From the NCBI GenBank assembly GCA_018700535.1, contig JABITQ010000072.1, forward strand, positions 1 to 54,077: a stretch of 54,077 nt of DNA, in the 5' to 3' direction. This DNA comes from Candidatus Uhrbacteria bacterium. GTDB lineage: Bacteria > Patescibacteriota > Patescibacteriia > UBA9934 > GWF2-40-263. Position 1 is the first letter of the stretch, and every line of letters starts with the position of its first letter. Position numbers and translations under genes: made by a program. Under the pieces are notes generated by a model, which saw nothing but the letters and a program-made list of their open reading frames with translations, did no database searches and had not been told where the DNA came from. Below are positions 21,359-32,287 of the stretch, in pieces.

Positions 21359-22111
21359 CTACCCCGCGTCGCAGGTGTTTTCAAGTTCCTTTTTAAAAGG
21401 GTTCTTTTTAAGATCTAGATAGAGCATGGTCATATATACGGCCACCCACGGCATAGCGATCACTTCTCCTACAATCTGGATTGTTTCAGCCCAAATAGGA
21501 GCTTTGTTTTGATCAAAAACAGTAAGAGGGTCGATGCCAGCAAAGCTTGCAACAAGCATGATTACGAGTGCAGCGACACTTGAGTAGATAATGCCGATTG
21601 CTAGCGGGCCACCAACAAGTCGTCCGGCAACTTTGAAGAATCGACCACGCACCATCTCTTTGCTATCAGCGAGCGCTTGCATGCCCCGCTTGTCCTCTAA
21701 GATTGCGATGGGTTGTGCAAAGCCGTACCAAACAAGAAAGAGAAGTCCTGGCGCAACGAAGAGTAGAATTCCTCCGATAAAGATAATTGCTTGTAAAAAG
21801 ACAACGCCAAGAAATGCAGGTAAACGTTGTGTGGATTCTAAGTGAAGTGTCTTTGTATCTAATGGCTTATTCTCTATCAACTGTACGCTGAGTTTGATGA
21901 GAAGGATTGAGACCCAGAACGCAAAGAAGAGTTCGACGGCTCCTGCAAGAATTGCTCCTGTCGTAGTGAGCCAGTGTTCGGGTGCGTACGAAAGCGCAAT
22001 CATGGCTGCAAAAGGCACAAGAAGCCAAGTAGCGTATCCCAGCATGAGCCAGATGTTCTCTCGGTACAACTTGAGCGAGCGCTTAAAGAGTTCTGTGAGT
22101 GAGAGCAGCAT
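21359..22111 (-). CDS. polytopic membrane protein, paralog of the upstream gene
   Basis: About 6 TM helices. The N-terminus (LSLTELFKRSLKLYRENIW) and a mid-protein RGRFFK motif match the 22116-22991 product. ATG at 22111 avoids overlap. Confidence 0.65.
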   Translation of the reverse strand: MLLSLTELFKRSLKLYRENIWLMLGYATWLLVPFAAMIALSYAPEHWLTTTGAILAGAVELFFAFWVSILLIKLSVQLIENKPLDTKTLHLESTQRLPAFLGVVFLQAIIFIGGILLFVAPGLLFLVWYGFAQPIAILEDKRGMQALADSKEMVRGRFFKVAGRLVGGPLAIGIIYSSVAALVIMLVASFAGIDPLTVFDQNKAPIWAETIQIVGEVIAMPWVAVYMTMLYLDLKKNPFKKELENTCDAG

Positions 22112-22115
22112 AGGT

Positions 22116-22991
22116 TTATGCGTCTTTGATTGATTGGTAAAGAAGTACGTCTGAAATGATAATGAGCGGATTGATGAAGATGACAATAAGAGTTGGTAGA
22201 ACAGCGTCAGTCATTGTGGCGATGCGTAGTTGTAGATCAAGGCTGATCCCAGCACTTGCGTCCACGAGGACATTGCCGATGTAGCCGACGATTACCATGA
22301 CAAAAAGTCCAAAGGCGATAAAGACGAGCTTTGGTACGACGATGCGAATAAGTGCCTGCCAGAATTTTCCACGTACAAGTTTGCGTGAGGCTTCAAGTGC
22401 TTTTTTGCTAGGGGTCTTTTCAAGAATGGTTATGATTGGAGCAAAGAAGTAGTACACCATCCATTGGAAGCTAAGGTAGAGCGCTACGAAGATTCCTAGC
22501 ACTAGGAGAAGATTTCCGATAAGTACAAGTCCGCTTACATTAAGCCATGCGCCAATCCCAGCAATAATGGCTGGGGGAGCAAAACCAATCACGATCGCAA
22601 GGAGCAACATGAGGAGCACCATGAATGTTGTGATTGCTGCTGGGATAAGGACTTCCTTTCCTTCTTTTAACGCCATTTTGTGATCTGGTCGCTTGCGAGA
22701 TAGGTGTGTCTTTACCATGCGTGTGAGCGAGGTGTAGATCCAGAATGTAAGGATTGGGGCAATGAGGTATGCCGTTAGTGCATAAAGACCAATACCAAAC
22801 ATTTCACCTCCAGTCAGGTCTGAGCGAAGTGTGAGTGCGCTTGATGATGGGTAAAAGGCTAGGGCTATTACGTAAAGAATAGCTGTGACAAGGATCCAGC
22901 CAGAGACTCCGAGAAGTTCGGTAATCCTCGTTTTGTAAACGTTGAATGATTCGTCGATAAGTTGACCGACGGAAATGAGAGGTTTTGGCAT
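22116..22991 (-). CDS. polytopic membrane protein, paralog of the downstream gene
   Basis: Multiple TM helices, with N-terminal ISVGQLIDESFNVYKTRIT and an RGKFWQ motif. The ATG at 22991 lies 2 nt after the stop of the kinase gene. Confidence 0.65.
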   Translation of the reverse strand: MPKPLISVGQLIDESFNVYKTRITELLGVSGWILVTAILYVIALAFYPSSSALTLRSDLTGGEMFGIGLYALTAYLIAPILTFWIYTSLTRMVKTHLSRKRPDHKMALKEGKEVLIPAAITTFMVLLMLLLAIVIGFAPPAIIAGIGAWLNVSGLVLIGNLLLVLGIFVALYLSFQWMVYYFFAPIITILEKTPSKKALEASRKLVRGKFWQALIRIVVPKLVFIAFGLFVMVIVGYIGNVLVDASAGISLDLQLRIATMTDAVLPTLIVIFINPLIIISDVLLYQSIKDA

Positions 22992-22993
22992 AA

Positions 22994-23707
22994 CTAGCAA
23001 GTAGTAAAAATATGATCGATAAGTTGTTTGGCGCGCGCGTTGGTTTGCTCGAGAGAGTCTGAGGTGTCTAGGTCAAAAATGTCTGTGCCTTTTGATGTAA
23101 AAAGTTCGCGGAGCCATTTGGATTTGTAACGCTCCTCCTGTTTCTTTAAAAATTCTAGTTCTACAAATACACCTTTTGATTCGTCGCTTCGTGACTTGAT
23201 GCGCTCGTGCGCTTGGTTTGCTGAGATGCTTGTGAGGATAAGTGCGGTGGGTACGTTCTCAAGAGCAAGCTTGTTACCTGGGAGATTCATAATGGTCTCG
23301 AGCGGTACAGAGTTGTCCATGATGGGTTGGTAGACGAGTGAGCTTGAGACGCCACGGTCTTGGATGATCGTTTTGCCAGCCTTGAGTGCTGGGATGATCA
23401 GGCGTTTGTACATCATCTGTCTGTCGAGAGCGAAGGCGTGTGCAAGCTCTTCGCCGCCATAAGGCAGATCAGATCGTGAGAGTTCGTAGCGAATAGCTGC
23501 GCCCACCCATGAGCGTGTTGGCTCGTAGGTAAAATAGACATCGTAGTCGGGGATGTCTTCAAATGTTGGGGGTGCAGGTTCTTTCCAATCGTTCAATCGA
23601 AAAACGCGATGTTCGCAGTCTTGTGCCCATGCATCAACTGATCGAAGCACCGTAGATTTCCCGCTACCGGTAATGCCGTCAACAATAATAAATCGTCCTT
23701 TGTTCAT
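22994..23707 (-). CDS. thymidylate-kinase-like dNMP kinase
   Basis: P-loop FIIVDGITGSGKST, the YEPT..G..IR segment, a DRG (DRY-like) motif and a LID-like region. The ATG at 23707 (MNKGRF) is preferred over the track start at 23827, which would overlap the divergent gene. Confidence 0.8.
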   Translation of the reverse strand: MNKGRFIIVDGITGSGKSTVLRSVDAWAQDCEHRVFRLNDWKEPAPPTFEDIPDYDVYFTYEPTRSWVGAAIRYELSRSDLPYGGEELAHAFALDRQMMYKRLIIPALKAGKTIIQDRGVSSSLVYQPIMDNSVPLETIMNLPGNKLALENVPTALILTSISANQAHERIKSRSDESKGVFVELEFLKKQEERYKSKWLRELFTSKGTDIFDLDTSDSLEQTNARAKQLIDHIFTTC

Positions 23708-23806
23708 AGGTTCGAGAGTTGTCCACAAGGACGTTGTCTTCCTGCCTATTTTAGCCCAAATACGGCCTGGTGGAAACCTGTCGGTGGGTGGTACAGTGTT
23801 GCTTGT

Positions 23807-24646
23807 ATGACACCATTTGACGTTCAATATAAAGAAGCGATTCGTTTGATTATGGAAGAAGGGATTGATGTCCCAAACCCATGGTCAGGTCGTGTGACCC
23901 GTATGGTTCCTGGTGTAACCTTGCGTGTAGATGTTGCGGAGTGTTTTCCGTTGTTAACACTTCGGAAAATTCCATTACGTCTTTTTATTGCTGAGCAGGT
24001 TTGGTACTTGATGGGCGAGAAGAACGCCACCTGGTTGCAGCAGTACACAAAAATTTGGGATGCATTTTTGGAAGAAGACGGTACGGTGCAGGCGGCTTAT
24101 GGTCATCGGTGGCGTCATCATTTTGGGCGCGATCAAATTGATTTGCTCGTGACACACCTCAAAGAGAATCCTGCATCTCGACATGCAGTTGTGATTACTT
24201 GGGATCCTGCAGATGATGGTTTTGGTCTCGACAAAAAGTTGAATGTCCCATGTCCGTATACATTTACTGTTAACATTGCTGGAGGAAAACTTCATCTCCA
24301 CAACATCATTCGCAGCAACGACATGATGCTTGGGTGTCCGCACGATGCCGCAGGTTTTGCACTATTACAGTGTTTCTTGGCTGAAAAGCTAGGTGTCGAG
24401 CCAGGGATCTACACACATTCAATTTCAAACGCACATATCTACGACAATCACTTTGATGCCGCAAACGAGCTCATGAGTCGCAGTCACGATCACGGAACGG
24501 TAAAAGTAACGATTCCAGAAAATGGTTATGATCGCGCGGTAAAGGGAGATACCGAGCTTGTGAGTGAATTGTTTAAGCAAGTAAAAAGTCAGTACAATCC
24601 CCTTGAATCAATTAAAGGAATGAAGATTACCGTTAACGTTTACTAA
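23807..24646 (+). CDS. thymidylate synthase (ThyA) family enzyme with atypical Asp at the Asn177-equivalent position
   Basis: It aligns by eye along the whole length of E. coli ThyA: CFPLLTLRK, IWDAF, AYGHRWR, ASRHAVVITWD, catalytic NVPCPY, IRSNDMMLGCPHDAAGFALL, SNAHIYDNH, and C-terminal GMKITVNVY. Confidence 0.85.
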   Translation: MTPFDVQYKEAIRLIMEEGIDVPNPWSGRVTRMVPGVTLRVDVAECFPLLTLRKIPLRLFIAEQVWYLMGEKNATWLQQYTKIWDAFLEEDGTVQAAYGHRWRHHFGRDQIDLLVTHLKENPASRHAVVITWDPADDGFGLDKKLNVPCPYTFTVNIAGGKLHLHNIIRSNDMMLGCPHDAAGFALLQCFLAEKLGVEPGIYTHSISNAHIYDNHFDAANELMSRSHDHGTVKVTIPENGYDRAVKGDTELVSELFKQVKSQYNPLESIKGMKITVNVY

Positions 24647-24648
24647 AC

Positions 24649-25170
24649 ATGAAAGTATTACTTATCGCCGCAATTACTGCGGATGGAAAAATTGCTGAGA
24701 CAACTGATCAAAGATCACTTGATTGGACGAGCAAAGAGGACTTGAAGTTTTTTATTGAGAAAACAAAAGAGGCCGGTGTTGTGATCATGGGTAGGAAGAC
24801 TTATGAGACGTTTGGTAAGCCTTTGAAAGGACGCAGGTTGATTGTGATGTCATCAAAAGGAGATGATGGACTTATGGATAAAGTGGATGAGCTTGAAGCT
24901 GGAGTTGTCGAATATTCTCGACTAGACATTAAGCAGATGATCAGCAAGCTTGAAGCGCAAGGGTATGATCAAGTCGTTGTTGCCGGAGGTGCATCTGTTT
25001 ACGGTCAGTTTTTGGAGCAAGAGCTTGTGACAGATGTTTATCTTAATGTTCATTCGATTTTGTTTGGTGCAGGCGTACCACTTGCAACAGGGTTCGAACG
25101 TGTGCAGATGAAGCTTGAAGATGTCAGTCGTTTAGGAGAGCAGGAGGTTCTACTCCATTACACTGTTTAA
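24649..25170 (+). CDS. dihydrofolate reductase family protein (RibD C-terminal domain type)
   Basis: 173 aa with LIAAITADGKIA, GVVIMGRKTYE and VVVAGGASVY motifs. Lies 2 nt downstream of the ThyA-family gene. Confidence 0.7.
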   Translation: MKVLLIAAITADGKIAETTDQRSLDWTSKEDLKFFIEKTKEAGVVIMGRKTYETFGKPLKGRRLIVMSSKGDDGLMDKVDELEAGVVEYSRLDIKQMISKLEAQGYDQVVVAGGASVYGQFLEQELVTDVYLNVHSILFGAGVPLATGFERVQMKLEDVSRLGEQEVLLHYTV

Positions 25171-25171
25171 T

Positions 25172-25212
25172 AAAAAAACTGGCGTCGGGATAATCCCTGC
25201 GCCAGTTTTTTT
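25172..25212. terminator. bidirectional intrinsic terminator
   Basis: AAAAAAACTGGCG..CGCCAGTTTTTTTG between convergent genes. Confidence 0.75.
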
Positions 25213-25217
25213 GTTTG

Positions 25218-28200
25218 CTAAGCCTCTCTTTGCAGGTTGATATCTGCTAACTCTTTCTCGATAAATAATTCATTTGATTCGATCTTTCTAAGAATCTGAC
25301 CATACTCTGGAGTATGTCTTAGTTCTTCGTTTTGCATATCGACAAGCATGGTTCTAAACGCTTCTGTTTCTCCAAGTGTGTTGACCAAATCTTTGCGCAT
25401 GTCGTTTGCTGTGTGTTGCGCGTTGTATCCATCGCTATCAAAGACCACTTGGGTGACAGTGTTTGTTGTGTCCGGGTAACCACCCACCATTTTGTACCCA
25501 CGATAGATTTCGTTTGAGGTGATTCCGCGTGCGCTAAGGGCTTGCTCTTCGTATTGCCAATGGTCAAAGCGAGCCATGTTTACATTTGTAACCTCACCTT
25601 TGAGGTTGTAGTGAAATCTTACTCTTCCGTGCCTGTTTGCAAACCGTCCTAATTTTTCACCGTCTTGATATCGGGTTTTTCCTGCATCGGAGTCGCTGGT
25701 CTGTTCTGTCGGTTCGCCGTTATTTACTGCTACAACACCCCCGCCACCAGTATCTACTGGAGCCTCTGGTGCAGCGGTGTTAACGAGAATAATACCAGAT
25801 GTTTCTGCGGCGTGCTTGATAACATTATGGGCTCTGTCTAAGTATTCTGCGTTACCACTGCGAAGTTCTGCTGCCAATAACCTTCGCAACAATACAGCCT
25901 CACCAGATGTGGGGTTCTCAATAATTTGAGCTGAGCGGAGAGCTTTCTCGTAAATAAAGATACGCATTGCTGTTTCTTTGATCGAATCTTTTCGGTCATC
26001 AATGCCGTTAAAGGAATCTTCCTCCCAATTGTCATCGAGCAGCTCTTGCGATGCGGTGGCGAATGACGGTGGGGCCTTGGCGATCTCGTCGTCTAGGTTG
26101 ATGCTTGGGGTGTGTGAACCATCGTAATCAAATTTGATACGACCAAGTCCTTTTACTTTAATTTTTACATCAGACTCACTTGCTTCAACATCGGCTTTGA
26201 TATCCGCGAGAGTTTCTGTTGATAGTGAGGCAAGTTCTTCGTTTCCTTGTTCGCCAATGCGAGCGATTTCATCGAGCATCTCGCGACGAACTAGATGTGC
26301 TTCTGCGCTATCGCCTAAGTCGTTGTCTTCAAGTGCGTGCAGGGTTCGCTCATAAGCTTCGATGCGTAGAACAGCTTGCTTAACCACCTCGATGTCGTGA
26401 GCGATCTCTGCTTTAAGATCTGAGTCGAGAGATGAGCTTGCCATCATTGCGTCGACTTGCTTCAGCTCTGCGGCATTCAGATCCATTCCAGTGATCTCTG
26501 CTCCCGTAACTGTGCTGTCTGGTCCGTGTTCAAAATCAACCTCAACACCCTTACCAAGCATAAGCTTGTCGATACCTGCTGAATGAGGTGTTGGATCAGA
26601 TGCAATTGATCGTTCGGTAATCGACCCAATGCGTGATCCGCTTTCGTAGGTGAGTCCTTGTTCTTCAGCCTCAGCAAACGTCATTGCTTCACCTGTAGCA
26701 GTGTCAACGAGTTGGATACCACCATCTTTTGTGGCATGCACAGCAATCTTTCCAATAGCGTCAGTATCAAGTCGCGTGTCTCCATCTTCGCGGATCGCTC
26801 CAGCGTCACGTGCGGTTTGAACGGCTTTGTCGAGCGCCCAATCTTTTACTCCGGTATCGTCGCCTGTATATCCAAACGATTTAGGATCTTCCATGTACTG
26901 GTTGCGAAGAAGTGCTGTGATGCTGTTGTGATCTCTGTCTGCGCTAACAGTAATTTCTTGAGAGACTTCAATGATCGGAGTTTCAACTGGCGCTGAAGAC
27001 TCTGCTGACGCCGCAGCTCCGGTTTCTGCTCCAGGCTCTGTGGTTGCAGCTACCGCCCCACCATCGACACTTGCAACTGGTGCCGGAGTGCTTGTTTCGG
27101 CAGTAGAAGGTGTTGGTGTGGTTGTTGATGTGGGTGTAGGTTTCGGTGGTGGAGTGACGGTTGCTGGAGTTGTCGTCGTAGATGAGTCTGGTGTCGCAAC
27201 AGCTTCTTCCTTACTGTTAAACAGGTCTGTAAAAAAGCGTACGACTGGATTTGAAGGATAACGATCGTCTGCTGCTTCTAGCGCCTCAGTTAAGCTCTTT
27301 TTAAGACCTTCTACATGTTTACCAGGGGCGATATCGCCAACATCATCACCGAATGCAAAAGTGGCAAGACCACCAAAGGTAGCGAGAGTTCCAAGGGCTT
27401 TTATTCGGCTAATGTTTCGTCCCCAAATGGTTTTTGCTCCTCCTCCCTCAAATTCATTTATTTTTTCATGGATTCCACTCACAATCATTTCGTTCCAGTA
27501 TGCATCTGGACGTTCACCCTCCTCAATTTCCTTACTGACTTTTCTATGACGTTCAAATAGTGAAACAGCAGAGAATGAGGCAAGACGATAAACTTCAAGC
27601 CCCGTTACTTTGAACAGTGTGTTAATTCCTTGTTTGAGCACCTCCGTCTCCTTGATGCGTGTCTCAATAGACTTTTTGAGAACCTCAATAATTTCCTTGT
27701 TCCGTTTTTCTTCAAGATCTTCAAGATCTTGCTCGTACTTATTGATGATGCCTTCGATCTTTCCAATCAGCTTCGCTTTCTTTGTTTCAGTGAGGAATTC
27801 AGATTGTTGAATTCGTTCTGCAATTACACGTTGTTTTTCGATGAGTAGCTCGTGTCCAGAAAGCTTGGGTTCTTTTTCTGCTGCTTTGAGCGCATCGAGA
27901 ATACTTGCTCTTTCTTTGTTTGTGTAGCGTCTCTGGAATCCGTATTGAATTGCATCAGGGATTATTTTTACACCAAAAATACTCATGGCAGCACCAAGCC
28001 CAGCACCAGCTAATGCTTTGGCTGTATCAACTCCTGTTGCTTCGTAGTCCTCTTTTTCTTCCGTGCGGAGCTCACCAGTAAACCGACGTTTGAATTGTTC
28101 TGCATGTCGACCGAGACTTTCTTTAAATCCTGATTGTTCGACAGGTTCTGAATCTGACTGCTCTTCATCGTTTTCAACCTGTACTGATTCTGTGCTAACA

Positions 28201-29798
28201 GCAGGATTGATTTCATTCGACTTGTCGTCGTCGACTTGCTCGTTTTTTAGAATCGCATCTATTCTTGCGGAGGCTTCTGTTTGAAAACTCACTCTCATGC
28301 TTTCTGTGCGAAGACTCTTCTCAACTTGAAGCCATTCATCAATGAGTTTTTCTGTTTCTGCTTCAATGGCTACCACACGTTCAGGGGAGAGGCTTAACAT
28401 CTCGTCCTTTTGGACGATCGAAAAATCGTCCATACCGAGCATTTGCTCTAATTGATGAACATCATCTTGGATCTTGTCATCGACGGCTGTGATTGATTCA
28501 GTGACAGTGTCTGGGGTTTGTGCTTTTACACCATCGAGCATTTCATTGATCTCTGCCAAGATATCATTGAGATAAAGTCGATTTATTATTTTTTCGCTTA
28601 ACAAAATTGGATCCTTAGGAGGATTTTCCGGATAAGTTTCTGTAAGGGTTCTAATTAGTCTGGAAAGCTTAATGTCAGCATCTTTCAGTTGTTGTACAGA
28701 TAGTTTTTCAAATTCACTTGTATTTTTTATTGCATGCAAAGGCCATTCAGTTTCAAGGGTTTTCAAAAGCCTCTGCACTCTTTCTAGCTCCAGCTTGTGT
28801 TCTGCTGGATTTTCATTTTCCAGCTGTTTTTCTTGGGTTTGCTCGGGTGAGAATCTTTGTCTGTCACCAGAGTTCACAACGGCATTGTGGATGTGCATTG
28901 GGAAAAAGTTTTCAAGAAGCTTTTCTTTTTCTTTCGGTGTTGATTCAATCTCTTCTGAAATTAATACAAGAAGTTTTTTGAGATCAACAAGATCTTCCAG
29001 CGACCAGCTATCAAGTTTTTGCAATTCCTCCAAGGTGCGGGAAATTAATGAAACTTTTACATCTAGGGAGGATCCTAGTTTTTCTAGATCCTCCAGCACC
29101 TCACGTTTTTGCTCTTGCAGCTCGACGTTAGAAGGATTTCCTTCTGGCACTCGTACAGCAAGAGGCTCCGCGGCTCCAAACACAGAAACAGCTTTATTGA
29201 TTCGAGTCTTGATTGTGTTGGCAAAGGCCGCTCGATCTGATACTGGCACCTGTTCAAAGTCGTACTTTATTTGATTCAGTATATTAACAAGGTCTTGTAG
29301 TTGGTCTGCAGACATGTGTCCAAGTCCATCTAGCTTCTTTTCAGTTGTGCCAAAAAGAACCCCTGCATCTTTTAGAGCAGATTGAAGATCTTGTAATTTT
29401 CCCCATGCTTCTGTTTGCTTCTTACGCTCACTTTCTGCATTCGCTGGAGATGTGGATTCTGGGGTAGTGGCTTGTGGGGGGAATGAGTTATCGGCCACTG
29501 TTGTGTCGATGATTTTTCTAGCGCTATTTACAAACGCACCTTTAGCTGCTTCCTTGTCTGCTTCAGGGATTGAATCAAATTCTACCAGTATTTTACCAAG
29601 TTCATGATGAAATGCGTCTAGCTCTTTTGCGGCCAGATCATCAAGAATGTCAATTTTGGTGTCGGCTGATATGGAAATAATACCTCTTTGAATCAAGGCT
29701 GCCCGAAGAGTCTTGACGTTCTCCCAAGCTTCATCTTGTATTCTGAGCCTTTCTTCCCTGGAAATTTTCCCCTCATGGCCTGGTGCATCTAAGTTCAT
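25218..29798 (-). CDS. giant acidic repeat protein (1526 aa) with two TM-like segments and a Thr/Pro-rich linker
   Basis: Uninterrupted 4.6-kb ORF. It has four N-terminal ~100-aa helical repeats, hydrophobic segments ALAGAGLGAAMSIFGVKII and ALGTLATFGGLATFAFG, a TTTTPATVTPPPKPTPTSTTTPTPS linker, and three C-terminal modules. Confidence 0.8.
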   Translation of the reverse strand: MNLDAPGHEGKISREERLRIQDEAWENVKTLRAALIQRGIISISADTKIDILDDLAAKELDAFHHELGKILVEFDSIPEADKEAAKGAFVNSARKIIDTTVADNSFPPQATTPESTSPANAESERKKQTEAWGKLQDLQSALKDAGVLFGTTEKKLDGLGHMSADQLQDLVNILNQIKYDFEQVPVSDRAAFANTIKTRINKAVSVFGAAEPLAVRVPEGNPSNVELQEQKREVLEDLEKLGSSLDVKVSLISRTLEELQKLDSWSLEDLVDLKKLLVLISEEIESTPKEKEKLLENFFPMHIHNAVVNSGDRQRFSPEQTQEKQLENENPAEHKLELERVQRLLKTLETEWPLHAIKNTSEFEKLSVQQLKDADIKLSRLIRTLTETYPENPPKDPILLSEKIINRLYLNDILAEINEMLDGVKAQTPDTVTESITAVDDKIQDDVHQLEQMLGMDDFSIVQKDEMLSLSPERVVAIEAETEKLIDEWLQVEKSLRTESMRVSFQTEASARIDAILKNEQVDDDKSNEINPAVSTESVQVENDEEQSDSEPVEQSGFKESLGRHAEQFKRRFTGELRTEEKEDYEATGVDTAKALAGAGLGAAMSIFGVKIIPDAIQYGFQRRYTNKERASILDALKAAEKEPKLSGHELLIEKQRVIAERIQQSEFLTETKKAKLIGKIEGIINKYEQDLEDLEEKRNKEIIEVLKKSIETRIKETEVLKQGINTLFKVTGLEVYRLASFSAVSLFERHRKVSKEIEEGERPDAYWNEMIVSGIHEKINEFEGGGAKTIWGRNISRIKALGTLATFGGLATFAFGDDVGDIAPGKHVEGLKKSLTEALEAADDRYPSNPVVRFFTDLFNSKEEAVATPDSSTTTTPATVTPPPKPTPTSTTTPTPSTAETSTPAPVASVDGGAVAATTEPGAETGAAASAESSAPVETPIIEVSQEITVSADRDHNSITALLRNQYMEDPKSFGYTGDDTGVKDWALDKAVQTARDAGAIREDGDTRLDTDAIGKIAVHATKDGGIQLVDTATGEAMTFAEAEEQGLTYESGSRIGSITERSIASDPTPHSAGIDKLMLGKGVEVDFEHGPDSTVTGAEITGMDLNAAELKQVDAMMASSSLDSDLKAEIAHDIEVVKQAVLRIEAYERTLHALEDNDLGDSAEAHLVRREMLDEIARIGEQGNEELASLSTETLADIKADVEASESDVKIKVKGLGRIKFDYDGSHTPSINLDDEIAKAPPSFATASQELLDDNWEEDSFNGIDDRKDSIKETAMRIFIYEKALRSAQIIENPTSGEAVLLRRLLAAELRSGNAEYLDRAHNVIKHAAETSGIILVNTAAPEAPVDTGGGGVVAVNNGEPTEQTSDSDAGKTRYQDGEKLGRFANRHGRVRFHYNLKGEVTNVNMARFDHWQYEEQALSARGITSNEIYRGYKMVGGYPDTTNTVTQVVFDSDGYNAQHTANDMRKDLVNTLGETEAFRTMLVDMQNEELRHTPEYGQILRKIESNELFIEKELADINLQREA

Positions 29799-30480: not shown

Positions 30481-31392
30481 ATGACAAATGTGGATTACCC
30501 GTACATGCCAGAAGGACGAGAGTTAAAGTTTGTTTCGGTGGAGGATTCTTTTATGCAAGAGGCTGCAAAAGCTCGTGGTGAGCGCGCTGGAGATCCGCTT
30601 TGGCCCATTGGTGCCGTCTTGGTAAAGGATGGGGAAGTTGTTGCTACAGCAGGGAACGGCTTTGATAAAGGGGCCGGCCGGGTGCATGTGTGTCCGCGGA
30701 TTGTGGAGGAGTGCGCGAGTGGTGTTGGATACGAGTTGTGCGACTTACACAATGCAGCAGGGCACGCCGAGCCAATGGTGATTAAGGTTGCGCGTGACGC
30801 CGGTGTAGAGACGGAGGGCGCAGACTTTTATATGTACGGTCATTGGTGGTGCTGCGAGCCTTGCTGGAATGTGTTGATCGATGCGGGGGTGCGAGATGTA
30901 TATGTGGTCGACGATGCGCATGAGCGTTTTAGTCGAGATAGGGTATATGCAGAAACGTTGAAATCGACGGTGAAGAGCGCGTACATTGCAGGGCCGATTA
31001 CAAACGTTGTCGACTTTGAATCTCAGAAGAAATTTTACGAAGCGATTGGGGAGGTGTGTGAATCAATGGGGTGCAAAGCAAGGATCCCGCATCGCGACAA
31101 TGTTGTGAATGAAATCTTTGATGGTGGTAATTGTGAGCAGGTGTATGAGTGGGCGACTAATGAGGCACATGTAAACGATGTTGTGGTGGCAGAGGTGAGT
31201 GATCCATCACTTGGAACGGGTGGGGAACTGGTCGAGGCTGTGTATGCAAAAAGGCCTATTGTGCTGCTTTCAAAAGTTGGGTCTAAGGTTTCTCGGTTTG
31301 TTCTTGGGAATCCAGCGGTGGTGTATCACATCGAGTACGAGAATCAGGAGGATGTTTGTCGAAAATTGAAGAATGTTTTGAAGCAGTTGTAA
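30481..31392 (+). CDS. dCMP/cytidine deaminase domain fused to a nucleoside 2-deoxyribosyltransferase-like domain
   Basis: N-terminal zinc motifs GHAE and CEPC. The C-terminal Rossmann-like half has YIAGPI and GTGGELVEAVYAKRPIVLL. The ATG at 30481 is preferred; the track start at 30289 overlaps the divergent gene. Confidence 0.75.
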   Translation: MTNVDYPYMPEGRELKFVSVEDSFMQEAAKARGERAGDPLWPIGAVLVKDGEVVATAGNGFDKGAGRVHVCPRIVEECASGVGYELCDLHNAAGHAEPMVIKVARDAGVETEGADFYMYGHWWCCEPCWNVLIDAGVRDVYVVDDAHERFSRDRVYAETLKSTVKSAYIAGPITNVVDFESQKKFYEAIGEVCESMGCKARIPHRDNVVNEIFDGGNCEQVYEWATNEAHVNDVVVAEVSDPSLGTGGELVEAVYAKRPIVLLSKVGSKVSRFVLGNPAVVYHIEYENQEDVCRKLKNVLKQL

Positions 31393-31585: not shown

Positions 31586-32242
31586 TTATGCTTTGTAGTT
31601 TTCTTTTAGTTCATCTAGCTTTCCGTTCACCAGCAATTCTCGCTCTTCATCTTTGTCGAGCTTGAATCCTTGTGAGCCACTCTCTGAATATTTGGCAGCA
31701 GAGACTCCGTGGAGGTTTGCTTCCTCGGGGGTGAGGGTGTCGTCTAGTTTTTGGAAGATGACTTGGCAGACGCGCTCGCCGGGGTAGATGCGGAGTACTT
31801 GGTCGCCGGCTTCGTTTTTCATTGGGAAGATCAGGTTGCCTTTGTAGCCTGTGTCGATGATACCTGAGAGCGAGAGGTTGATCCCGCGGCGGTTGGTGCT
31901 GGTGCGCGGGAAGAGGATTGCCATGAGGTTCATGGCGTTGACCTCGATGCGCTCAAGACTTGTTCCGATCACAAACTCGTTTGGGAGCAGATCGAAATAC
32001 TGTCCGGGTTGGAGATGGATCTCGTCGAATTGTTCGCGGTGTACATCAATGTCATCGATTGAGACTTTGATGGCGCGCCGTCCTTTCTCGTCTACGGTCC
32101 AGTTGCGGGGGATAAGGAATTTGTAGCCGAGGCGTAGGTCGACGGCGTGGGGCTGCATTTGGAACTTGTCCACAGCAGGGGTGAAGCGTAAATCACCAGA
32201 AGTGATGGATTCTTGGATTTGTTTGCGGGTAAGTACAGACAT
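31586..32242 (-). CDS. dcd: dCTP deaminase / dUTPase-superfamily protein
   Basis: The Dcd-like N-terminus (LTRKQIQESI) and the GIIDTGYKGNLIFPMKN and GERVCQVIF motifs are present. Start is ATG 32242 (alternatives 32251 and 32272). It has a charged C-terminal extension. Confidence 0.85.
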   Translation of the reverse strand: MSVLTRKQIQESITSGDLRFTPAVDKFQMQPHAVDLRLGYKFLIPRNWTVDEKGRRAIKVSIDDIDVHREQFDEIHLQPGQYFDLLPNEFVIGTSLERIEVNAMNLMAILFPRTSTNRRGINLSLSGIIDTGYKGNLIFPMKNEAGDQVLRIYPGERVCQVIFQKLDDTLTPEEANLHGVSAAKYSESGSQGFKLDKDEERELLVNGKLDELKENYKA

Positions 32243-32287
32243 AGTGGTCATAGCCTGACACAAATTTGGCAATCAGAAAACCCCATC

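Follow-up and report, generated by a model that had tools for sequence, protein, structure and literature searches.

The window analysed here is a 54-kb stretch of a contig from Candidatus Uhrbacteria (Patescibacteria, or candidate phyla radiation, CPR). The interval 22994-25170 within it holds three open reading frames (ORFs): a gene for a protein of the thymidylate synthase (TS, ThyA) fold, a dihydrofolate reductase (DHFR) gene downstream of it, and a divergently oriented kinase gene (Table 1). The TS-fold protein carries an Asp in place of the Asn with which ThyA reads uracil, and our analysis suggests that it methylates deoxycytidine monophosphate (dCMP) rather than deoxyuridine monophosphate (dUMP). 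The DHFR gene starts 2 nt past the TS stop codon, and the two genes are probably co-transcribed. If extended mechanically to its TTG start, the kinase ORF runs into the TS gene; the first Met ahead of the P-loop, in MNKGRFIIVDGITGSGKST, corresponds to an ATG at 23707, which is the probable true start. Both neighbours had been named in the original prediction, a reading of the DNA letters made without database searches, and both are present with Pfam support. A scan of 22800-25400 for consensus promoters and terminators gave counts no higher than shuffled controls, and no element could be demonstrated in the 99-bp intergenic region.

Table 1 Features at and around the TS, DHFR and kinase genes, in window coordinates.
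Feature	Position	Strand	Description
ThyA-fold enzyme with predicted dCMP-type active site	23807-24646	+	279 aa; Pfam PF00303 1.7e-55
Dihydrofolate reductase (DHFR_1 / RibD_C)	24649-25170	+	173 aa; Pfam DHFR_1 4.9e-18, RibD_C 9e-18
Apparent dTMP kinase	22994-23707 (mechanical ORF to TTG at 23827)	-	237 aa from ATG; Thymidylate_kin 3.4e-18
Divergent intergenic region between kinase and TS genes	23708-23806	none	99 bp; presumed promoters for both genes
Non-canonical dCMP-deaminase-family domain with C-terminal DNPH1/Rcl-like domain	30481-31392 (ORF upstream to 30289)	+	dCMP_cyt_deam_1 1.1e-10
DCD/dUTPase-superfamily protein with Pro for catalytic Glu	31586-32272	-	228 aa; Pfam DCD 5.3e-26
1526-aa ORF	25218-29798	-	matches no Pfam family
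Tandem paralogous membrane proteins, GPDPase_memb / UPF0259-like	21359-22186 and 22116-23000	- (both)	between GatB and kinase

The TS protein spans the full PF00303/ThyA fold. It scores 136.7 bits with the NCBIfam thymidylate synthase model TIGR03284 (cutoff 108.35) and falls far under the cutoffs of the remaining ThyA equivalogs. AlphaFold2 modelling with an alignment of 29 clade members gave a pLDDT of 92.4 and a pTM of 0.92. The best Foldseek matches are ThyA structures, with E. coli ThyA at a TMq of 0.81 over approximately 280 columns, and the C-terminal tail GMKITVNVY (E. coli GIKAPVAI) is modelled confidently except for its last few residues. Residues were mapped using a MAFFT alignment with E. 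coli ThyA (from NC_000913) and T4 gp42, which gave the same register as HMMER. The catalytic Cys is retained (E. coli C146, window C149), as are the equivalents of E58 (E63), W80 (W84), Y94 (Y98), R126 (R125), R166/S167/D169 (R169/S170/D172) and H207/Y209 (H210/Y212). The conserved residues that the original prediction had named (Cys, Arg/Ser/Asp, Glu, Tyr and His/Tyr) all stand where it had placed them.

The exception is N177 of E. coli ThyA, the reader of the uracil N3-H/O4 edge, which is D180 in the window protein. HMMER alignment with PDB thymidylate synthases pairs 'rsndmmlgcphdaagfall' with 'rsadiflgvpfniasyall' at maximal posterior probability. An Asp occupies Ec 177 (E. coli ThyA numbering) in 120/120 of the closest database homologs, is invariant in a 29-sequence CPR alignment, and recurs in each of the 85 TS ORFs from the CPR and viral loci retrieved. 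The Asn-to-Asp substitution claimed at the outset is thus borne out by HMMER, by MAFFT and by conservation across homologs. In the results of Hardy & Nalivaika (1992) and Liu & Santi (1992), as summarised in later literature, the same change at Ec 177 turns the E. coli and L. casei synthases from dUMP to dCMP.

Further departures from canonical ThyA surround this residue: H147 is Pro150, Q165 is Ile168, W83 is Phe87, R127 is His126 and L143 is Asn146. His147 and Gln165, near the uracil O4 and C5, either take part in hydrogen bonding around O4 of dUMP or lie within 6 Å of C5 (PMC8670742, PMC13326640), and positions 177 and 147 were the best two in separating TS homologs of cytosine-modified from those of unmodified phage contigs (eLife 2021, PMC8670742). 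The four phosphate-binding arginines of ThyA are R21, R126', R127' and R166, of which the second and the last are kept as R125 and R169. Replacement of R127 by His is almost invariant in the CPR clade. That of R21 by Trp26 is confined to this genome and its closest relatives (the Uhrbacteria/Kerfeldbacteria branch), with an Arg three residues on (WSGRVTR); other CPR members retain R21 but not R127. Compared with E. coli ThyA (EC 2.1.1.45), the window protein therefore shares the fold, the catalytic residues, the C-terminal tail and the thyA-folA gene pairing, but the dUMP-reading residues are gone (N177D, H147P, Q165I, W83F, R127H and R21W).

Of these substitutions, D177, P147 and F83 travel together among the closest homologs. 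A search of 1.84 billion representative proteins provided homologs which, with CPR clade members and references, made up a set of 155 full-length sequences. Asp177 is present in 134 of these, accompanied by Pro147 in 110 and by Phe83 in 126, while position 127 in the same 134 proteins is Gln (70), His (34) or Arg (30). All 21 Asn177 proteins have His147 and Arg127. Canonical proteins with W83/R127/H147/N177 first turn up near rank 58 of the search list.

Among 50,697 phage records, the best matches by E-value were the TS homologs of Xanthomonas Xp12/Bosa-group phages and Pseudomonas Pamexviruses. Those of Xp12, PaMx74, DoCa10, Mallos and PA_LZ02 carry Asp177 and Pro147 in 5/5 cases and have the motifs AAYGxRWRxHFGRDQ, WDPAxDGxG and KNVPCP in common with the window protein; in all five phages, genes for a dCMP deaminase and a DHFR come after the TS gene. 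The window protein scores 159-175 bits against the Xp12-type homologs (Xp12, DoCa10, PaMx74 and Mallos; 33-38% identity), 120 bits against E. coli ThyA (33% identity) and 42 bits against T4 gp42 (24% identity over 147 residues). Its sequence similarity to verified dCMP methylases thus exceeds that to dUMP synthases by approximately 40-55 bits. In an in vivo assay, 5-methyldeoxycytidine (5mdC) was obtained with the Xp12 homolog and with five of the seven Asp177 homologs from metagenomes (2024 preprint, Weigele and Ettwiller groups, bioRxiv 10.1101/2024.12.05.627091), and cytosine is replaced by 5-methylcytosine (5mC) in the DNA of Xp12 and PaMx74 (10.1101/2024.12.05.627091).

The Xp12/PaMx74 methyltransferases (EC 2.1.1.54 chemistry), the best-scoring characterised relatives, resemble the window protein in fold, Asp177, Pro147, Phe83 and a hydrophobic residue at 165, and likewise have a linked dCMP-deaminase-family gene and DHFR. 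In contrast to the phage-encoded enzymes, the window TS lies in the core chromosome of a cellular lineage. Ec R127 is Arg in Xp12 but His in the window protein, Ec R21 is Trp in the window genome, and the Xp12-type tail (...PEVIE) differs from the canonical-like GMKITVNVY. The deaminase partners belong to different subfamilies, the further partner is a HAD or MazG pyrophosphohydrolase in the Xp12 type and a DCD-like protein in the window, and the purpose is genome-wide 5mC in the former but likely thymidylate (dTMP) supply in the latter. A neighbour-joining (NJ) tree of the 155 homologs (100 bootstraps) recovered the Xp12 group with a bootstrap of 95 and CPR subclades with 90-96; phylogenetic placement, which the original prediction had proposed as a check, is firm for these groups only. 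At the level of sequence, every marker checked groups the window protein with dCMP methylases rather than with dUMP synthases, and we regard dCMP as its likely substrate with some confidence.

Several residues bear on which group would be transferred to C5. Hydroxymethylases (T4 gp42, MilA) are recognised by an acidic residue at Ec L143 and 5-hydroxy-dCMP synthases by D169N (PMC13326640), while S167A with R126K goes with the use of CMP rather than dCMP (MilA, PMC5175136). Position Ec L143, equated by ungapped counting back from the catalytic Cys with an indel just upstream, is Asn146 within KNVPCP in the window protein; an Asn also occupies this position in the Xp12 group, as against Asp in T4. 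At Ec D169 there is Asp172 and not the Asn of an RB69 gp48-type 5-hydroxy-dCMP synthase, and Ser170 and Arg125 are found in place of the Ala and Lys of a MilA/BcmA CMP hydroxymethylase. With Ser167 and Arg126 retained, a deoxyribonucleotide substrate is expected, unlike the CMP of MilA. The combination of Asp at Ec 177 with a non-His residue at Ec 147 (Asp180, Pro150), a non-acidic Ec 143 and Asp at Ec 169 is that of the Xp12-type dCMP methyltransferase, and disfavours hydroxymethyl and hydroxyl products.

Hydroxymethylation yields tetrahydrofolate (THF), so that it has no need for DHFR. The TS-like tail and the DHFR linkage of the window protein favour a reductive methylation of a deoxynucleotide that would produce dihydrofolate (DHF). 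Like the window protein, T4 gp42, the dCMP hydroxymethylase, has an RSND motif and an Asp (its Asp179) where base specificity is set, but it has Asp at the Ec L143 position and no TS-like C-terminal tail, and its THF product makes DHFR unnecessary for that reaction. We consider it very improbable that the window enzyme places another C5 group (hydroxymethyl or hydroxyl) on dCMP, serving sanitation, salvage or a secondary metabolite instead of DNA precursors. Such a function would agree with the presence of hydroxymethylases (T4 gp42, MilA) and 5-hydroxy-dCMP synthases among Asp177 TS-fold enzymes, with an Asn rather than a bulky hydrophobic residue at Ec L143, and with the fusion of the linked deaminase to a DNPH1-like domain, human DNPH1 being an enzyme that acts on 5-hydroxymethyl-dUMP (5hmdUMP). 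However, Ec 143 is not acidic, D169N is absent, the Xp12-group methylases likewise have this Asn in KNVPCP, T4 gp42 reaches just 24% identity and 42 bits, and a DHFR linkage in 74/80 related loci implies a DHF-producing, reductive reaction.

Two homologs outside the window, P0200 and P0220, are Asp-type TS proteins in which Ec R126 is Lys and Ec S167 is Ala, the MilA-like CMP signature. P0200 also contains a fused LOG/SLOG ('Lysine_decarbox') domain and may be a MilA-MilB-like hydroxymethyl-CMP/nucleosidase fusion.

On balance, we think it probable that the window TS gene encodes a dCMP C5-methyltransferase of the TS fold and of the Xp12 kind, the product of which is deaminated to dTMP and then phosphorylated. 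In the scheme that we infer for substrate, product, deaminase action and the cell's route to thymidylate, Cys149 would attack C6 of dCMP while Asp180 would read and protonate the cytosine N3/N4 edge. The methylene of 5,10-CH2-THF would be moved to the base and then reduced by the cofactor, giving 5-methyl-dCMP and DHF. The downstream DHFR would restore THF, which in relatives a linked serine hydroxymethyltransferase (SHMT) would reload. The linked deaminase subfamily (HAE...GHWWCCxPCW) would convert 5-methyl-dCMP to dTMP, the divergent dTMP kinase would form thymidine diphosphate (dTDP), and pyrophosphate hydrolysis by the Glu-less DCD-like protein may be a source of dCMP or a means of clearing deoxyuridine triphosphate (dUTP). 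The net chemistry would be that of the deaminase-then-ThyA route with two steps swapped and dUMP bypassed. The original prediction of a dCMP-directed, probably reductive-methylating enzyme that feeds modified DNA or an indirect dTMP route is supported, in that all the sequence evidence gathered agrees with it.

A precedent for this order of steps comes from phages. Cis-encoded phage deaminases beside D177 TS homologs are often 5mC-selective, and a conversion of 5mdC to dT nucleotides that needs no dUMP-using synthase has been proposed (10.1101/2024.12.05.627091). The mSCD route of 5mC phages (Yang et al. 2024 preprint) resembles the window in its D177 TS homolog and cis-encoded dCMP-deaminase-family enzyme, and both it and the proposed window route would lead from dC to dT nucleotides without a dUMP-using synthase. 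It is, however, a viral strategy on 5mC-substituted DNA, whereas the window route would be housekeeping in a bacterial superphylum. The deaminase subfamilies differ, and so does the apparent level of deamination, which is the triphosphate 5mdCTP for the best-studied mSCD, whereas the window kinase suggests the monophosphate.

The deaminase fusion and the 'Dcd' that the original prediction had noted nearby were both located (Table 1); the latter is without the catalytic Glu and is probably no deoxycytidine triphosphate (dCTP) deaminase. The deaminase scores 26.7 bits with the ComEB model (cutoff 219), far from canonical dCMP deaminases. Its subfamily has an N-terminal YPYxPEG (YPYMPEGR in the window), a Cys-rich insert (CxR...C), HAE and GHWWCCxPCW (GHWWCCEPCW). 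The C-terminal domain matches DNPH1/Rcl deoxynucleoside monophosphate N-hydrolases in the PDB, and a scan of 81 sequences (the window and 80 related loci) detected this fusion in 17. We regard the protein as a candidate 5-methyl-dCMP-to-dTMP deaminase.

In the DCD-like protein, 'LIFPMKN' aligns to 'ITLELSN' of M. tuberculosis DCD, with Pro replacing the catalytic Glu. The same replacement is found in 38/38 full-length TS-linked CPR DCD homologs (the window and 37 in L006-L089). This Glu is reportedly E138 of E. coli dCTP deaminase, in the structures of Johansson et al., and with Pro in its place the proteins should not deaminate. The window protein scores 88.9 bits with TIGR02274, below the cutoff of 92.8, while one of the 38 Glu-less homologs passes the NCBI dCTP-deaminase cutoff (104 versus 92.8 bits). 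These proteins, though annotated as deaminases, are thus probably dUTP or dCTP pyrophosphatases, and the cluster apparently has no classical step from dCTP to dUTP that would feed a dUMP-using synthase.

The kinase scores 85.3 bits with TIGR00041 (cutoff 83.25). Aligned to S. aureus TMK, it keeps FALDR and DRGVSSSLVYQ, residues that we take to stack on or hydrogen-bond the thymine base in the S. aureus structures, and it looks like a genuine dTMP kinase. The thymine-binding residues point to dTMP as the end product and favour the indirect dTMP route over 5mC-containing DNA. As for the DHFR, folA genes taken from other CPR orders rescue an E. coli delta-folA strain (PMC11974145).

Deployment of the product in DNA itself appears distinctly improbable. 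Here, 5-methyl-dCMP would be raised to 5-methyl-dCTP and become chromosomal 5mC for some or all cytosines, as in Xp12, with the DCD-like protein acting as a dCTPase that depletes dCTP. The closest characterised relatives do exactly so in Xp12 and PaMx74, and a dCTP-hydrolysing partner is typical, as seen in the nucleotide pyrophosphohydrolase beside the Xp12-group TS and in a MazG-TS fusion (P0161). Loss of the deaminase Glu from the DCD-like protein and a UMP/CMP-kinase-like AAA kinase in 9/80 clusters would also fit. The adjoining kinase, however, has with its thymine-binding Arg and Gln the look of a dTMP kinase and not of a 5mdCMP kinase. Cells would moreover still need a source of dTMP, which the deaminase linkage provides, and conservation with housekeeping neighbours over many CPR classes fits essential biosynthesis better than a patchy, defence-type modification. 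It is the thymine-type kinase and this housekeeping-like conservation that lead us to prefer dTMP supply over wholesale 5mC substitution. Literature searches returned no report of globally 5mC-substituted CPR DNA, which is absence of evidence only. In a stronger variant of the dTMP-supply reading, some 5-methyl-dCTP may also enter Patescibacteria DNA.

The extent of the Asp-type TS was assessed by a scan of one genome per GTDB species, in which at least 436 genomes had a relative; neighbourhoods were taken from the best 80 of the 436 (54-80% identity). All 80 carry Pro147/Asp177 and all look like Patescibacteria, with titles that include Uhrbacteria, Kerfeldbacteria, Magasanikbacteria, Gracilibacteria, Peribacteria, Paceibacteria, Nomurabacteria, Kaiserbacteria, Kuenenbacteria, Saccharibacteria, Altimarinota and 'Patescibacteria group'. 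The nearest TS homologs come from metagenome-assembled genomes of Candidatus Uhrbacteria and other Patescibacteria. The Asp-type TS is a trait across Patescibacteria, and no peculiarity of this genome. Thirteen of the best 80 records are titled 'uncultured Gammaproteobacteria' (L015, L016, L017, L021, L024, L027, L034, L037, L038, L041, L044, L064 and L073). They carry a CPR-type TS, mostly as TS-DHFR (often followed by GatB), and their titles, which look like placeholder or erroneous taxonomy, we regard as unreliable.

Neighbours within 10 kb of the TS gene were counted in the 80 loci by tblastn, using proteins of the window and of two other contigs. DHFR was found in 74/80, usually directly downstream, and the dCMP-deaminase-family gene of the distinctive subfamily in 63/80. 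A DCD-family gene was present in 38/80, GatB in 36/80, a Tmk-like kinase in 26/80 and SHMT in 21/80; the second, UMP/CMP-kinase-like AAA kinase was that of the nine clusters mentioned above. The deaminase gene often adjoins the TS gene, either divergently at approximately 0.5 kb upstream or directly behind TS or DHFR. It comes directly after DHFR in other Uhrbacteria, whereas in the window the 1526-aa ORF lies between the two.

Viral contigs from IMG/VR also encode Pro147/Asp177 TS proteins, 44-54% identical to the window protein. In 4/8 of these contigs (L096, L098, L099 and L101) a deaminase of the CPR-type subfamily is encoded no more than approximately 520 bp from the TS. The two genes share 8 nt at the TS start in L096, where the neighbours are a YqaJ recombinase, a HAD protein and a dUTPase; those in L099 are a ParB protein and an MT-A70 methyltransferase. 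Fusions among Asp-type homologs include deaminase-TS (P0136) and MazG-like-TS (P0161). The sharing of a TS-deaminase module by CPR and viral contigs bears on the evolutionary origin of phage cytosine-modification enzymes.

The gene content fits both orders of reaction, and it is the specificity of the synthase that decides between them. We weighed the case that the window protein is an ordinary thymidylate synthase using dUMP, in which a protonated Asp mimics Asn. The deaminase would then make dUMP from dCMP, the DCD-like dUTPase would make it from dUTP, and DHFR and Tmk would complete the pathway. The gene set of the cluster is that of the textbook dTMP cycle, the TIGR03284 cutoff is passed, the catalytic residues and C-terminal tail are all TS-like, and the gene is annotated and treated in the field as thyA, part of the minimal Patescibacteria repertoire. 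In addition, no further PF00303 ORF and no ORF with the ThyX motif (RHR-x7-S) was found in the 54-kb window or in the 80 loci of up to 21 kb, a search that covered at most 10 kb on each side of the TS match; if there is no other synthase elsewhere, this gene must in some way yield dTMP. Nevertheless, Asn-to-Asp switches the E. coli and L. casei enzymes from dUMP to dCMP, His147 and Gln165 are also replaced (by Pro and Ile), Xp12 and 5/7 other natural D177 homologs gave 5mdC in vivo (2024 preprint), and the window protein matches Xp12-type homologs better than E. coli ThyA by some 40-55 bits. Taken with this evidence, both dUMP use by the synthase and the accompanying classical pathway seem unlikely, though they retain appreciable weight.

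Several observations nonetheless weigh against dCMP methylation followed by deamination. The deaminase, dUTPase-like, TS, DHFR, Tmk and SHMT set suits the classical dCMP-to-dUMP-to-dTMP pathway equally well, and the window protein exceeds the thymidylate-synthase cutoff of TIGR03284. Asp in its protonated form is isosteric with Asn, and binding of dUMP by it is possible in principle. Of the four phosphate-binding arginines, two are altered (R21 to Trp26 and R127 to His126). In the NJ tree all deep nodes have bootstraps below 30, which gives no support for a clade that unites the CPR and Xp12 proteins apart from canonical ThyA. The CPR deaminases are marginal to both the Xp12-group and the T4 (Cd) deaminases, at approximately 29 bits or less and no closer to one than to the other. 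As 5mC selectivity is reported to be polyphyletic, their specificity is not readable from sequence. Finally, mSCD-B5, the deaminase studied in depth, acts on triphosphates and not on 5mdCMP (10.1101/2024.12.05.627091), a misfit with deamination at the level of the monophosphate.

In textbook accounts, cellular thymidylate synthesis proceeds through ThyA or ThyX, both from dUMP. Asp177 TS homologs, dCMP methylation and a route from 5-methyl-dC to dT nucleotides are already known from phages; what would be new is a known enzyme type in a cellular, apparently housekeeping role. Literature searches found no prior report of an Asp-type 'thyA' in Patescibacteria/CPR, and a 2025 study treats the gene as ordinary dTMP synthesis in the minimal Patescibacteria repertoire (PMC12455944). 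We put forward only tentatively, and at somewhat less than even chances, the broader proposal that a large part of the Patescibacteria is without a dUMP-dependent synthase and makes all de novo thymidylate via dCMP methylation, followed by deamination of 5-methyl-dCMP by the dedicated subfamily. If true, Patescibacteria, a large share of bacterial diversity, would use a third order, dCMP to 5-methyl-dCMP to dTMP, so far proposed for 5mC-containing phages only. CPR metabolic reconstructions that score the gene as ordinary thyA would need revision, and the predicted antifolate or 5-fluoropyrimidine sensitivity of CPR organisms would be affected. The CPR deaminases would also be a new source of possibly 5mC-selective deaminases, of value for methylome sequencing.

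The remainder of the window is made up of genes such as PheS/PheT, DnaE, ThrRS, MiaA, MiaB, GatB, L1, L11, NusG, SecE, GyrB, FtsW and RF1, together with S2, EF-Ts (Tsf), GAPDH and PGK. A prophage or viral insertion was considered and rejected in view of these core-chromosome genes and of GatB synteny recurring in 36/80 genomes; the TS gene is cellular rather than viral and lies in an ordinary bacterial core chromosome. The gene order Tmk-membrane protein-GatB recurs in distant CPR contigs, for example L006. The 1526-aa ORF is rich in Glu/Lys coiled-coil-like and Thr/Pro low-complexity stretches. It separates DHFR from the deaminase, two genes that adjoin in several related Uhrbacteria loci (such as L013, L019 and L020), and has the appearance of an insert that the nucleotide cluster acquired in this lineage.

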